A stretch of DNA of 64,000 nucleotides. Source: Planctomycetota bacterium. Lineage in GTDB: Bacteria > Planctomycetota > Phycisphaerae > WQYP01. The stretch is taken from assembly GCA_021810145.1 (NCBI GenBank), contig JAJZJL010000002.1, positions 4,643-68,642 of the forward strand, given 5' to 3'. Below the pieces are notes generated by a model. The model was given only the letters and a program-made list of their open reading frames with translations. It had not been told where the DNA came from and did not search any database. Both the position numbers and the translations under genes were made by a program. How positions within the stretch are numbered: the stretch's first letter is position 1; the number at the start of each line of letters is the position of its first letter. Below are positions 32,854-37,487 of this stretch, one piece after another.

Positions 32854-34152
32854 CTAGGTCTTGATTAAATCCAATGACTTAAACCCCTTGCCCAGAATTG
32901 CCCCGCTGTCCGCCTTGAGCCAGTTCGACAGGATACTTGCGTAAACGCTGCGAAAGTCAGTGGTGAATTTCAGGTCCCCCATTTGCAGATGTTCCTTGGC
33001 CAATGAGGGCTGTGTGCCGATCAATCCGGACTTTATACCGCCACCAAGAATGAACATCGGTGCCGCGGTGCCATGGTCGGTTCCCAGACTCGCATTTTCC
33101 GCCACGCGACGGCCAAATTCCGAAAATGTCACCACCATGGTTTTCTGATGCAACCCCTGCAATTTAAGATCCCGCATAAACGCCGATAGCCCGTCCGAGA
33201 TATCCGCCATCAGCGTATCATGCGCTTTTTGCTGCTGGGCATGGGTATCAAATCCGCCCATCGACACATAATAAACCCGGGTCGGTAAGTTTGATGCGAT
33301 CATCCTTGCCACAAGACTTAACGATTTCGCAAGTTGCGACGCCGGATAGCTGACATGATTCTGTGCTTTATCCACGGCCTGGCGTATATCACGGCCTGAA
33401 ATTTCCGCATCCAACGCCGTTCGCTGCAGAAAATCCAATTCCTGATTGGCACAAAGCGGACAGGGCGTATCATGTGGACCAATACCGTTGATGCTGCGGT
33501 ACACATCCCTCAACTGCTGATGCGCTTTATCCCCACCTCGTCCGGGCAACCATTGGAATTGATCGGGCGTCTGGAAGGATACCGGCTCAAATTTGCTTCC
33601 GCCCAGGGCCACCGGCGATAGCGGCCCGATACTGATGGCCGCATCCGGACCGACGGGATCGGTTCCAGAACACTGGGCGTCAAAGTATCTTCCCAACCAG
33701 CCGTGCTTACCGATTCTCGCAGGTTCGGCGGTCTCCCAGATTGCTGTTGATCTGAAATGCGACCGGTTCGGATTGGGGTAACCGACACCCAGAATCACTC
33801 CCAGTTCCCCGGCATCAAATAGCGCTTTCATACCCTTCATTGCCGGATGAAGCGCCAGTGAATTTCCCAGTGACAGCAGGTTGTTGGTAATGGCCAGATG
33901 TGGCCGAGCCCGGCGATAGTCGTCATTATCCACCGGTATGACTGTAGACAATCCATCGTTTCCACCACCCAGTTGCACGACCACCAGTACGCGCTCATCA
34001 CCGCGCCCCGCCGCCGTTTGTGTCAATGGATGATCCGCGGGATTATTCATTGCAAACGCCGTTCGCTGAAGAAAGGCCGGCAGCGTGGACGCTGCGGAAA
34101 GAATGGTCAATCCACGGGCGACAAAAACACGGCGCGTATGCAGCATATCCAT
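32854..34152 (-). CDS. DUF1501 (sulfatase-like) protein with a Tat signal.
   Basis: N-terminal RRVFVARGLTILSAAS twin-arginine signal, and the DUF1501 fold characteristic of the DUF1800/DUF1501 gene pairs abundant in Planctomycetes and Verrucomicrobia. Confidence 0.85.
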   Translation of the reverse strand: MDMLHTRRVFVARGLTILSAASTLPAFLQRTAFAMNNPADHPLTQTAAGRGDERVLVVVQLGGGNDGLSTVIPVDNDDYRRARPHLAITNNLLSLGNSLALHPAMKGMKALFDAGELGVILGVGYPNPNRSHFRSTAIWETAEPARIGKHGWLGRYFDAQCSGTDPVGPDAAISIGPLSPVALGGSKFEPVSFQTPDQFQWLPGRGGDKAHQQLRDVYRSINGIGPHDTPCPLCANQELDFLQRTALDAEISGRDIRQAVDKAQNHVSYPASQLAKSLSLVARMIASNLPTRVYYVSMGGFDTHAQQQKAHDTLMADISDGLSAFMRDLKLQGLHQKTMVVTFSEFGRRVAENASLGTDHGTAAPMFILGGGIKSGLIGTQPSLAKEHLQMGDLKFTTDFRSVYASILSNWLKADSGAILGKGFKSLDLIKT

Positions 34153-34265
34153 GATTCACCTCTTGCACATTTTCTGACGTTTGGTTGTCAGCATTATCCA
34201 TTCGCTTTCGCCATATAACCGCCGGTTCCGAGATACCATCCGCCGGGCACAGGTCGGATGGGCAG

Positions 34266-35792
34266 TTAACACAACTGGTACTCCGGCATAGCCATAATCA
34301 GTTCCACCAACTCCAGGAGCCGCCAATGTGTTGAACCATCGGCGGTATTCAACGGTCGGCTGTCGGTTGAGTCTGATCCATTGAGAACCCGTATCAAATC
34401 GGAGCGTTTGGCAGGCTCAATTTCATCCGCAATCAGTCGATTGAGAAAATAATCGACGGCACCATCGGTAGTGGCAATACCGGCACGCGCCAGGTCCAGT
34501 TCCGGTGAAAAGCCGGTCTGAAATTCTGTCAGTAAGGCGGAATGCGGTTGATTCCATGCGGAACTTCGGGCGTGGCTTGGACGACGCCCCGTTACCAGAG
34601 CCGCGGGCATATCGTAGCGGGCAAATAAGGTACTGGTGTTAATCCACGCCCTCCCGTGGGGCCAGCCGCCGACATTCGGCGCTTCAAATAATTCCTGCCC
34701 CATGGATTTCATACTGTAAAGCATGCCATTGGCATTGGGAGCGGGCACATTCAATGCCCGAAAACTCCCGGCCACGAGTTCCATCGGTGATTTAATTTTA
34801 CGCCGCATAACTGCGTCTGAAAAAAACCAGCGGCTGGAAAACAACTGCTCCAGCACCGGCGCCATGCGCCAATCAGATTCGCGTAATTTCTGCGCCAGTG
34901 CGTCGACAATTTCGGGGGGCGGATCATCCGAGGTAAAAAATGCCGAAAGTTTGAACGCGAAATGTTTCGCGGTTGCGGGCTGCTGGAAAATAATCCGGAC
35001 AATATCATCACCGTTGAAGTTGCCGGTATGACCAAGGAAGGTCTTTTCCCCGTCATCATGCTCAAACGGACGGAATACGAAATGATCACCCACAAATGTC
35101 CACCCGGTCCAGGCGCGAGCGGATTGCCGCACATCCTCCTCGGTATAGTTGCCGATTCCCATGGTAAAAAGTTCCATAAGTTCCCGCGCATAGTTTTCAT
35201 TCGCGTGACCCTTGCGGTTCTGATTGTTGTTCAAATACCGAAGCATGGCGGGATCTCTGCTGATGTTCAAGGTCAGCACCTTGGCGCTTCCGGTGGCAAA
35301 TTCCCGGAACAACTGATTCTGCATATACATGTGGTAAGCGTTATTCACGGAAGAAAACGCGCTGACAAATAAGCCATGCCAGAACAGCGTCATTTTCTCT
35401 TGCAATGGCCGTCTGGTTTTCACCATCCGGTTAATCCACCAGCAGCGCATCTCCTGCATCTTGGAAAAGCCAGCCTGAACTGTGAGTTGAAAATACTCCC
35501 GCCGTTGCGCTTTGGTCAGTGGTCTGAGGAACCGGCGGATTTCCCGAAAATTAGAAAATTCCCGGTGGGATAACGGCCCGAATTCCAGTGCGGGAAGATC
35601 ATCTGGAATGCTCTGATAATACACAATATGGTTAATCGCCTCATGGGGTCCCATGCGCACCAGAGCGGCAATATCCTCCGGCGTACCACCAAATCCGGCG
35701 CGGTTCAACAGATGGCTGGCAGTACGCCAATTCCATTTAAATGAATGATCCGACCAGATGGGGGTCAAAATGGATTCCGAAGCCGTGAGCAT
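34266..35792 (-). CDS. DUF1800 protein, partner of the DUF1501 protein.
   Basis: 508 aa. Conserved N-terminal ASHLLNRAGFGGTPEDI motif of DUF1800. Immediately upstream of the DUF1501 gene on the same strand. Confidence 0.85.
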   Translation of the reverse strand: MLTASESILTPIWSDHSFKWNWRTASHLLNRAGFGGTPEDIAALVRMGPHEAINHIVYYQSIPDDLPALEFGPLSHREFSNFREIRRFLRPLTKAQRREYFQLTVQAGFSKMQEMRCWWINRMVKTRRPLQEKMTLFWHGLFVSAFSSVNNAYHMYMQNQLFREFATGSAKVLTLNISRDPAMLRYLNNNQNRKGHANENYARELMELFTMGIGNYTEEDVRQSARAWTGWTFVGDHFVFRPFEHDDGEKTFLGHTGNFNGDDIVRIIFQQPATAKHFAFKLSAFFTSDDPPPEIVDALAQKLRESDWRMAPVLEQLFSSRWFFSDAVMRRKIKSPMELVAGSFRALNVPAPNANGMLYSMKSMGQELFEAPNVGGWPHGRAWINTSTLFARYDMPAALVTGRRPSHARSSAWNQPHSALLTEFQTGFSPELDLARAGIATTDGAVDYFLNRLIADEIEPAKRSDLIRVLNGSDSTDSRPLNTADGSTHWRLLELVELIMAMPEYQLC

Positions 35793-36236
35793 GGCAGATA
35801 CTCCCGAAATTCAGTTGCAATTGCGTCCGATACATCTTCAATTATCGGCATAGATTGAAATCCGGCATCAGAAGGCATCGCGGCAATGGAAAAATGCCGC
35901 GACAACCAGCGATGCAGGCTCAATTGAATCAAACGCCAGGATCGCTCCAAAGTTGCAACACTCTGTGCAAAGCTGTGACCGCCGCCGCAACAACGATGTG
36001 TCTTCACTTGGGCGGGCAGGCCTGCTTGAACGTGGCGCACCACGCAAGTTCGTGGTTAATATGTTTCTCGGCGCGCGCCTGGCAATAGGTTTTACCGCAC
36101 CGCAGCCAATTTCGACTTCCACGGATTGATCTATGTCTGGCGAACCCTTTGGCCTTGGGCCGAACCAGCATCGTTGCGTCGTCGCGTCCCTGGGCAGTTG
36201 GCCATCCGCAACTTTCCATGTCGCAGTTCGTGTGGC

Positions 36237-37316
36237 ATGATGATGACCATGAAGCTGCCACAATTGCTATTGTTAAATCACTGGATCGCCACCACTGTAA
36301 TGCTCGGCATGATCGGTTGGATTGGCATTACTCCGGCATATTCGGATTATCCTGCCGGACCGAGTCCTAAAATTATCATGATGCCCCAACCGGCCCGACC
36401 GACATGGAAACTCGGTAGCATGGCCCCGTCGTTGCATATAATGGAGTTGTCCGGCCAAAAGATCTCTTTATCGCAGTTTTTGGGCAAGCCGTTGGTTCTG
36501 GAATTCGGCAGCCTCACCGAGCCGGCATTTCGCCTGAGTGCCCCAAGCATGAACTGGCTGGCGCGCAAATGGAAAAACAAGGTGCAATTTCTGGTTGTTT
36601 ACCAAAGTGAATCGCATCCTGACGGAACCAGTCGGGAACTGCAAGTCAATCAAAAAGCCGGATTGTCAATTCCGCAGGCGAGAACTCAGCCTCAACGCGC
36701 TGCCGATGCCCGGCTGGCACAGCGAAAATTACACCTCCAGATTCCATTAATTGCCATTGACAACGCGGATAATCAAACGGCCAAGGCTTATGGATCGCTG
36801 CCCAATATGACCTTTCTTATTAACGCCCACGGACAATTGCTTGCAGCCTGGCCATGGATGACTCCATGGCAACTCAATGGTGCCATTCAGGCCCTGCTGG
36901 CGGGCAAAGCGATTCCATACGGTGATATGAGCGCTGGCTTTACGCCAAATACCATGCCACCGATGGAGTTTGATTATCGCGCCCTGCCACCGGCGTCACC
37001 GCAGATTCTCGCCGCCGCCATTGATCGCGCCGGCGTTACCCGGCATCAACTGGCAAACATTATTCCGGCCGTCACCGCTTTTTCATCCGCCTTGCTCAAA
37101 ACCCGGGAACACATTGCGCAGCTGCGTTCCGCGAAAGGGCAGTTTAACGGTGCCTTTCGTCGGTCTGTGCGTAAAGCTTTTGATTCACTTGGAAAATCAG
37201 CCGCGGAATTAAAGCGATCCCTGCGGCAGTTTCTGAACAATCAGCAATATCAGGAAATTTTATCCGCCATCGACCGCGGTCGGATGCGCCGCATATTTGA
37301 CCAACCAAGGCCGTGA
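36237..37316 (+). CDS. Secreted thioredoxin-fold protein of the iodothyronine-deiodinase-like family, with the redox Cys/Sec positions replaced, plus a ~150-aa C-terminal extension.
   Basis: Signal peptide MKLPQLLLLNHWIATTVMLGMIGWIGITPAYS. GKPLVLEFGSLTEPAF...VQFLVVYQSESHPDG aligns with the deiodinase core RPLVLNFGSCTUPPF...FLVIYIEEAHPSDGW, but with C to L and U/C to E. Confidence 0.6.
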   Translation: MMMTMKLPQLLLLNHWIATTVMLGMIGWIGITPAYSDYPAGPSPKIIMMPQPARPTWKLGSMAPSLHIMELSGQKISLSQFLGKPLVLEFGSLTEPAFRLSAPSMNWLARKWKNKVQFLVVYQSESHPDGTSRELQVNQKAGLSIPQARTQPQRAADARLAQRKLHLQIPLIAIDNADNQTAKAYGSLPNMTFLINAHGQLLAAWPWMTPWQLNGAIQALLAGKAIPYGDMSAGFTPNTMPPMEFDYRALPPASPQILAAAIDRAGVTRHQLANIIPAVTAFSSALLKTREHIAQLRSAKGQFNGAFRRSVRKAFDSLGKSAAELKRSLRQFLNNQQYQEILSAIDRGRMRRIFDQPRP

Positions 37317-37459: not shown

Positions 37460-37487
37460 TTGAAATATTTGCCAACCGATGTATAAT
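37460..37487 (+). promoter_or_regulatory. Putative rpsA promoter: TTGAAA, 16-nt spacer, TG-TATAAT (extended -10).
   Basis: gatTTGAAAtatttgccaaccgaTGTATAATa, ~200 nt upstream of rpsA. It is preceded by the GGAAACCCGCGGCCGTTTTAACTTTGG-TTGACA motif. Confidence 0.45.

Follow-up and report, generated by a model that had tools for sequence, protein, structure and literature searches.

Here we describe a predicted exported protein of 359 amino acids, encoded by a complete gene at 36237..37316 on the forward strand (stop codon at 37314-37316, from the open reading frame list and its translation) in a stretch of 64,000 nucleotides from the Planctomycetota bacterium contig JAJZJL010000002.1. This whole stretch is called the window below, and all positions refer to it unless a relative's locus is named. 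Profile and fold both place the protein in the deiodinase (PF00837) superfamily, and thiol or selenol redox chemistry is impossible for it: the whole protein contains no cysteine, and the position of the catalytic selenocysteine (Sec) is held by a glutamate, Glu95. Within one clade of Phycisphaerae relatives this carboxylate has been fixed and its surroundings remodelled. Our tentative reading, to which we would give somewhat less than an even chance and which draws on analogy with other proteins, is that it serves as a periplasmic, Cys-free, non-redox ligand- or client-binding protein of the holdase type in envelope homeostasis.

Bacterial deiodinase-like proteins have been known since 2005, but they are uncharacterised and have been treated only as Sec and Cys forms (PMC1088965, PMC13188914). 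They have been listed all that time as homologues of selenoproteins or Cys proteins and assumed to be redox enzymes. In the searchable literature we found no description of a predominance of non-Cys forms, of a fusion to LTXXQ units, or of a Glu/Asp clade among them. The database protein identical to ours over all 359 residues (P0001, 100% identity, present on 14 contigs) is annotated just as 'hypothetical protein'. The locus and its relatives turn such a vague annotation into a hypothesis, namely periplasmic client or ligand binding instead of redox catalysis, and they offer a natural Cys-to-Glu/Asp experiment on a peroxiredoxin/deiodinase scaffold. The value of the case lies in protein-family function and in the evolution of the thioredoxin fold, with no medical or ecological implication as yet, and we regard it as a moderately interesting lead on the role of the whole bacterial deiodinase-like family.

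Deiodinase fold and the replaced redox residues

The T4_deiodinase family, PF00837, was the top Pfam match of the window protein (E = 1.1e-15; 58 bits against a gathering cut-off of 27; residues 58-196) and the sole Pfam family above its threshold. The redoxin families stayed below theirs, AhpC-TSA (PF00578) with 22.5 bits against 26 and Redoxin (PF08534) with 17.1 against 26.6, and the peroxidatic Cys required for membership of either is absent from the protein. An earlier reading of this DNA from its letters alone (hereafter the sequence-only reading) had proposed a deiodinase-like thioredoxin-fold protein and suggested a comparison of the PF00837 and redoxin hidden Markov models (HMMs) as a check; T4_deiodinase, and not an unrelated redoxin family, came out as the best match. 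The model for the bacterial 'deiodinase family protein', NF038285, aligned through its positions 177-320 of 347 with residues 58-201 at 86.9 bits against a cut-off of 250. The window protein is not a member of that family, as its score lies below the cut-off and its domain order is opposite to that of the model.

When PDB sequences were searched with phmmer, the leading matches were mouse Dio3 (4tr3, E = 3e-8) and Dio2 (9h48, E = 9e-7). The alignments pair FGSLTEPAF of the window protein with FGSCTCPPF of a crystal construct in which Sec is changed to Cys, and VYQSESHP with IYIEEAHP. Structure prediction, the second check suggested at the outset, pointed the same way. An AlphaFold2 (AF2) model built from 17 homologues has a mean predicted local distance difference test (pLDDT) score of 70, with the thioredoxin-fold core mostly at 80-92 and the omega-loop, residues 126-135, below 50. 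A Foldseek search of the PDB with this model placed Dio2 (9h48) at rank 1 (E = 8e-9, template-modelling score on the target 0.72) and Dio3 (4tr3) at rank 7, amid thioredoxin-like and ResA/TlpA-type proteins. Dio2 and Dio3 are thus the nearest relatives of solved structure by sequence and by fold, and the PF00837, NF038285, Dio3 and Dio2 matches together mark out a deiodinase-like thioredoxin-fold domain at residues 58-222 (36408..36902, + strand).

The alignment to mouse Dio3, whose numbering we use for the animal enzyme, and the codons together define the active-site segment LEFGSLTEPAFR (residues 88-99; 36498..36533, + strand) and show what has been kept and what has been replaced. In Dio3, hydrogen bonds link Ser167, Thr169, Tyr197, Glu200, His202 and Arg225 into a network that holds the omega-loop in place and gives the substrate pocket its shape (PMC7506546). 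All six are retained in the window protein, as S92, T94, Y122, E125, H127 and R154 respectively, and among the relatives these positions are invariant or nearly so (Y122 and E125 invariant, H127 nearly). Three of them, Tyr197, Glu200 and His202, identify the stretch Y122-Q-S-E125-S-H127-P128 as the omega-loop anchor (36600..36620, + strand). The redox residues have fared differently. Sec170 is replaced by E95, Cys168 by L93, Cys239 by P170 and His219 by A148, and Trp207 of Dio3 has been replaced as well. We considered whether a Sec (UGA) codon had been mis-called, or the frame shifted, in the active site, and rejected both: E95 is encoded by GAG at 36519-36521 and is not a mis-read UGA, and the frame runs on without a break and is conserved among the homologues.

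The sequence-only reading had named the exchanges of Cys for Leu and of Sec/Cys for Glu, both of which hold, and had gone on to a non-redox or differently catalytic protein. With neither Cys nor Sec in the mature protein, its function has to be a non-thiol, non-selenol one, in keeping with that proposal. The Pfam T4_deiodinase and fold matches would on their own speak for a genuine deiodinase or another thiol/selenol oxidoreductase, such as a peroxidase or disulfide reductase. But a protein with no Cys, no in-frame UGA, a GAG codon at the catalytic position and neither of the candidate resolving cysteines makes this vanishingly improbable. Reductive deiodination of iodothyronines without Sec or Cys appears chemically implausible from these residues, and the sequence refutes this explanation unless a thiol cofactor is recruited in trans, of which nothing gives a hint.

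The Glu/Asp clade within the bacterial family

A word-indexed search returned 17 full-length relatives with 41-71% identity from metagenome-assembled genomes (MAGs) of Planctomycetia and Phycisphaerae. Some carry the NCBI name 'deiodinase-like protein'. The same search picked up two distant deiodinase-like proteins of different domain make-up. The motif [LVI]EFGS[LIM]TEP[AT]F[RH] is present in every one of these close homologues (17/17), and R99 is conserved in the bacterial family. A profile of the clade, searched against 1.84 billion representative sequences, recovered 1973 proteins at E <= 1e-3, of which 760 reach E <= 1e-10 and 45 reach E <= 1e-30. The description of the family as one best known in animals does not stand up to this search: the clade profile recovers 760 representative clusters at the middle threshold, and bacterial members have been on record since 2005 (PMC1088965).

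The relatives that share the carboxylate form a clade of 38 representative clusters, referred to here as the E/D clade, in which, as in the window protein, a signal peptide is followed by the deiodinase-like domain and then by a C-terminal helical domain. The clade is monophyletic, with no intruders, in a neighbour-joining tree of the deiodinase-like domain. At the Sec position it has Glu in 30 of the 38 clusters, Asp in 7 and Asn in 1, and at the Cys168 position Leu, Ile or Met. The mature proteins share no conserved Cys; most have none, and a few have one or two at varying positions. When 185,579 species-representative genomes were scanned, 13 loci came to light, every one of them in Phycisphaerae, Phycisphaerales or unclassified Planctomycetota MAGs.

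The mainstream relatives are built differently, with the deiodinase-like domain at the C-terminus and 150-350 amino acids ahead of it. Among the 128 nearest mainstream representatives the Sec position holds Ser in 53, Cys in 49, Ala in 14, Thr in 7, Asp in 2, and Glu, Val and Asn in 1 each, in a sample that is biased toward resemblance to the query profile and in which true Sec forms are missed, since gene callers truncate them. The Cys168 position is never Cys in these 128 and is Tyr in 83. This survey of bacterial homologues, also among the checks proposed from the sequence, puts the double substitution in another light: both cysteines are indeed replaced in the window protein, but the replacement is no rarity, for loss of the catalytic Cys is common in the family and the neighbouring Cys is found in 0 of 128. 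Most of the nearest family members are without a redox residue, and the assumption that bacterial deiodinase-like proteins are redox-active appears unsafe for most of them. Since Cys loss is so common among bacterial relatives, the distinctive feature of the E/D clade is the conserved carboxylate.

Several single proteins show how variable the wider family is. Half of the mainstream Ala forms carry Tyr for His at the position of His202. A distant relative of 516 amino acids (P0018) joins TPR repeats to a Cys-type deiodinase-like domain, and another of 367 amino acids (P0019) joins LTXXQ-like repeats to an Ala-type domain (FASYSAP), in each case a helical repeat module attached to this domain.

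The carboxylate did not change alone. The E/D clade is separated from the mainstream at L135, M191, T192, F193, L201, P206 and M208, while the invariant residues F90, S92, P96, R99, Y122, E125, N138, R154, D175 and W207 are common to both; N190 is invariant in the clade alignment (A4). Most of the separating positions fall in two short segments, P189-N190-M191-T192-F193 and P206-W207-M208 (36801..36860, + strand), whose clade-specific residues would line the remodelled site. By the topology of the thioredoxin fold, P189-N190-M191 would be the cis-Pro loop and P206-W207-M208 the loop after the last strand, in the region of the Dio3 'clamp' residue Arg275, and both loops would adjoin the active site. 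One member of the clade, P0033 (326 amino acids), is the sole one with Asn at position 95 and also has Asn for His127 (FASITNP and ESNP); this single case hints that positions 95 and 127 may be coupled.

Such a pattern bears directly on whether the domain still does anything. It could be a catalytically dead relic, a pseudoenzyme kept as scaffold or spacer for the helical domain, in which the Glu has no specific role. Every redox residue has been lost, and in sister clades the position of Glu95 can hold Ser, Ala, Thr or Val. The gene also evolves faster than any of its neighbours in the syntenic block: across the loci L005-L008 its product is ~62% identical, as against 87-91% for the DUF1800 and DUF1501 proteins (DUF1501 ~90%), 94-98% for ribosomal protein S1 and 95% for an ABC ATPase. 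Yet no part of the protein is better conserved than the active-site segment, which is essentially frozen, and Glu or Asp occupies the site in 37 of the 38 clusters that represent the monophyletic clade, along with nearby residues that were fixed with it. Neutral decay would not yield such conservation, and we consider a relic very unlikely. The co-substituted positions near the site argue for remodelling over decay, and in the E/D clade the carboxylate and a set of nearby residues seem, from the alignments, to be under purifying selection.

Remodelling might also have produced an enzyme with new, non-redox chemistry. Here Glu95, or Asp, would act as general base or nucleophile with His127 assisting, on a small molecule held in the omega-loop pocket, for example by hydrolysing or isomerising an aromatic or halogenated compound. 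The pocket-shaping network of the deiodinases is conserved in full (PMC7506546), Glu and Asp that interchange but are strictly kept are a classic catalytic signature, and the clade-specific pocket residues suggest a new specificity. There is a parallel of a kind in the glutathione S-transferase superfamily, also of the thioredoxin fold, whose chemistry switches according to which residue (Cys, Ser or Tyr) stands at the N-terminus of helix 1; we know of no precedent, however, for a carboxylate catalyst at this position of the fold, and we think a new enzyme quite unlikely. No conserved catabolic or transport genes surround the gene, and the family-wide fusion to a chaperone-type helical unit, to which we turn now, points to protein clients and not to small molecules.

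The C-terminal helical unit and a possible envelope role

The architecture of the protein begins with its export signal. A longer open reading frame from a TTG at 36126 was rejected, and the start at 36237 preferred, because the homologues and P0001 begin at the methionines of MMMTMK or MMxMK. The N-terminus has a Lys-containing N-region followed by hydrophobic residues 10-32, modelled by AF2 as a helix at 8-31, and the junction A-Y-[AS] / D-[YF]-P-x-G-P-S-P is kept across the family in the homologue alignment. These features are consistent with a cleaved signal peptide for the Sec export pathway at residues 1-36 (36237..36344, + strand), with likely cleavage after A-Y-S36 and ahead of the invariant D37. 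The signal peptide proposed in the sequence-only reading thus stands as a prediction, in line with both the hydrophobic stretch and the family-conserved junction. A Pro-rich linker of low confidence follows at residues 37-57 (36345..36407, + strand; pLDDT below 50 at residues 30-51), in which D37, P39, G41, P55 and W57 are invariant in the core clade.

Beyond the deiodinase-like domain, which ends at about residue 222, the protein continues for ~137 amino acids as a disordered stretch and then a helical domain that makes up the last ~100 residues (~254-354; 36996..37298, + strand). Modelled alone by AF2, this domain is a helical bundle with a pLDDT of 84.5. Pfam and PDB-sequence searches of the extension gave no significant match, and its kinship was approached through the family. 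In the mainstream relatives the N-terminal extensions consist of repeats such as 'LDLSDEQKQKV...ILTPEQQQKL' that match the Pfam family LTXXQ (PF07813); two of the seven scanned pass its cut-off of 24.3 (P0043 with 28.0 bits, P0045 with 25.7). With an HMM built from eight such mainstream units, matches were obtained in 98 of 127 mainstream representatives, mostly one or two per protein, and also in the C-termini of the E/D-clade proteins P0021 (E = 6e-10, over the whole unit), P0033, P0035 and P0022, though not in those of the window-like core. Aligned profile to profile with hhalign, the C-termini of the clade (alignment A3) and the mainstream LTXXQ units (alignment A5) match with a probability of 94.6% and E = 6.5e-8 over 74 columns, with the motif 'LD..x.LT..Q' and a second motif 'L...(Q/D)Y' in register. 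The window protein has degenerate LTxxQ-like motifs at V267-T-R-H-Q271 and L333-N-N-Q-Q337.

The C-terminal extension is therefore probably a divergent LTXXQ-type (Spy/CpxP-type) unit, as judged from these alignments, and of the earlier description of an extension of about 150 amino acids the extension itself stands but not its character as an anonymous tail, for it is probably a relocated helical unit. The deiodinase-like domain is tied to LTXXQ-type helical units family-wide, and almost always travels with them. In our reading of this transitive sequence evidence, the E/D clade may have arisen when the mainstream order of the two domains was reversed.

These parts can be assembled into the non-redox, holdase-type function proposed above. 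The protein would be exported by the Sec pathway to the periplasm as two modules, the deiodinase-like domain and the C-terminal LTXXQ-type unit. The former retains the deiodinase pocket scaffold, with the Sec/Cys nucleophile exchanged for Glu95 (Asp in some relatives) and the putative pocket neighbours Leu93, Met191, Thr192, Phe193, Pro206 and Met208 remodelled in a clade-specific way. The fixed carboxylate would fill the anion pocket that holds a thiolate or sulfinate in relatives, and would permanently imitate the hyperoxidised state in which peroxiredoxins are active as chaperones, while the Spy-like unit would supply client binding, dimerisation or both. Peroxiredoxin-type domains turn into chaperones once the peroxidatic Cys becomes a sulfinate. 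In the 2-Cys peroxiredoxin (2-CysPrx) of Arabidopsis, the C54D variant, a mimic of hyperoxidation to the sulfinate, has the highest chaperone activity (PMC5806080). Spy, a periplasmic chaperone that works without ATP, carries two LTxxQ motifs (PMC4791398). It is because LTXXQ proteins such as Spy are chaperones, and because the Cys-to-Asp peroxiredoxin mimic is chaperone-active, that we favour a holdase-type role.

A number of points weigh against this proposal. The bacterial deiodinase-like family is functionally uncharacterised as a whole, and a strictly kept Glu/Asp with a conserved His beside it is no less typical of a catalytic or metal-binding site than of passive binding. The analogy with the sulfinate mimic is drawn from 2-Cys peroxiredoxins, whose chaperone form depends on decamers. 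Pfam LTXXQ (PF07813) has no match to the window protein, and among 22 C-termini of the clade only one got as far as E = 0.029. Fold searches with the C-terminal model returned generic helical bundles, with Spy and CpxP absent among the matches listed. Finally, the neighbourhoods of the gene, which comprise DUF1800/DUF1501, rpsA, LpxI or an esterase-FGE fusion, show no chaperone or stress signal.

The same two modules could instead form a periplasmic metal-binding protein, a chaperone, buffer or sensor, with a Cys-free site made of Glu95, His127, Met191, Met208 and Trp207. In the oxidising periplasm, copper and other metals are bound by sites of this Met/His/carboxylate kind, and the LTXXQ-type unit would be akin to the metal-linked superfamily members ZraP and CnrX. 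We consider this unlikely, given that CnrXs matches the fold no better than many generic helical bundles do and that conserved metal-resistance or transport genes are lacking nearby. Metal binding would in any case not be the function of the whole family, because the Ser, Ala and Thr that are abundant in sister clades are poor metal ligands.

A bolder proposal, which we regard as possible but doubtful when its two parts are taken jointly, would accommodate much of the above. In the E/D clade, a thiol/selenol site would have been naturally converted to an active carboxylate-His centre, with either new enzyme chemistry or a Cys-free Met/His/carboxylate metal site; and, more broadly, the bacterial deiodinase-like proteins, of Cys, Ser, Ala and Glu types and nearly always joined to Spy-like LTXXQ units, would make up a class of proteostasis factors in the periplasm that has gone unrecognised.

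Gene neighbourhood and comparison with known systems

The neighbours of the gene in the window, a DUF1800/DUF1501 pair, ribosomal protein S1, a PLD-type enzyme and a cupin, are typical of Planctomycetota. The window has a G+C content of 54.9%; searches of its 64 kb for paralogues of the deiodinase-like gene, for tRNA and tmRNA genes and for Rfam families at the gathering threshold found none. The DUF1800 (508 amino acids) and DUF1501 (432 amino acids) genes lie at 32854-35792 on the reverse strand, divergent from the deiodinase-like gene, and in close relatives the latter again stands between a divergent DUF1800-DUF1501 pair and rpsA. This adjacency holds in every relative down to 48% identity (loci L002-L011), but neither the 42% homologue (L001/L012) nor the wider clade has it any longer. 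It is probably synteny, although a functional link of the exported DUF1800 and DUF1501 proteins with the deiodinase-like protein is possible. At the loci of one relative (P0006), a restriction-modification cassette with a SacI-like endonuclease and a D12-class methyltransferase sits between DUF1800 and the deiodinase-like gene (3833-5900 in L002, 3311-5378 in L003), leaving both flanking genes undisturbed.

In the wider clade the divergent upstream gene is another one, encoding a 752-amino-acid fusion of a BD-FAE/alpha-beta-hydrolase esterase with an FGE-sulfatase domain, the latter like the formylglycine-generating enzyme (FGE) (L013; L014, 4714-6972 on the reverse strand; L016; L017). Downstream, lpxI is convergent in four of five wider-clade loci (L014-L017). 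No neighbour is conserved across both sub-clades, and we therefore judge the arrangement to be lineage synteny and not an operon; as the neighbours differ between sub-clades, we rejected the gene context as evidence on function. Between the deiodinase-like gene and rpsA there is a sigma-70-type promoter-like site at 37460-37487 on the + strand (TTGAAA, a 16-nt spacer and TATAAT, 11 of 12 matches), which suggests that rpsA may be transcribed independently and that the deiodinase-like gene may be monocistronic.

Among solved structures, the animal enzymes DIO1-3 (4TR3, 9H48) give the best matches by sequence and by fold. The window protein shares with them the thioredoxin/peroxiredoxin-like fold with a deiodinase-type insertion, the FGSxTxPxF and Y-x-x-E-x-H-P motifs and the Arg that closes the omega-loop. 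Unlike them, it has Glu for Sec170, Leu for Cys168, Ala for His219 and Pro for Cys239, and it is without the Trp207 of the AHxxDGW motif of Dio3. Whereas DIO1-3 are anchored in the membrane by an N-terminal helix, the window protein is predicted to be secreted and soluble, carries a C-terminal helical domain and comes from Phycisphaerae. Reductive deiodination through a selenenyl or sulfenyl intermediate, the route of the animal enzymes, is not possible for it.

With the bacterial deiodinase-like proteins (NF038285) it has in common the homologous domain, export and the combination with LTXXQ-type helical units. The order of the domains is reversed, however, with a single C-terminal unit in place of their one or two N-terminal units. 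The window protein and its clade also have Glu or Asp where the others have Cys, Sec, Ser or Ala, show the clade-specific residues M191, T192, F193, P206 and M208, and are restricted to Phycisphaerae. The helical part recalls Spy, CpxP and ZraP (PF07813) as a predicted periplasmic, all-helical unit of ~100 amino acids with two degenerate LTxxQ-like motifs at helix starts. It differs from them in being fused to a thioredoxin-fold domain and in having no direct Pfam match, and from Spy and CpxP in that the predicted monomer is a compact helical bundle with no significant structural match.

Two further comparisons concern function. Hyperoxidised 2-Cys peroxiredoxins and their Cys-to-Asp mimics likewise present a carboxylate-like or carboxylate group at the peroxidatic-Cys position of a peroxiredoxin-type fold; the likeness would be one of analogy only, for the carboxylate of the window protein is natural and permanent and its domain is of the deiodinase type. 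The 'chaperedoxin' CnoX (YbbN) is a cytoplasmic protein in which a thioredoxin-fold domain with an atypical site, which keeps a Cys, is combined with a helical TPR chaperone module. Although CnoX belongs to another thioredoxin subfamily and shares no homology with the window protein beyond the fold, both join a thioredoxin-fold domain without classical redox activity to a helical module, and the distant relative P0018 likewise pairs TPR repeats with a deiodinase-like domain.

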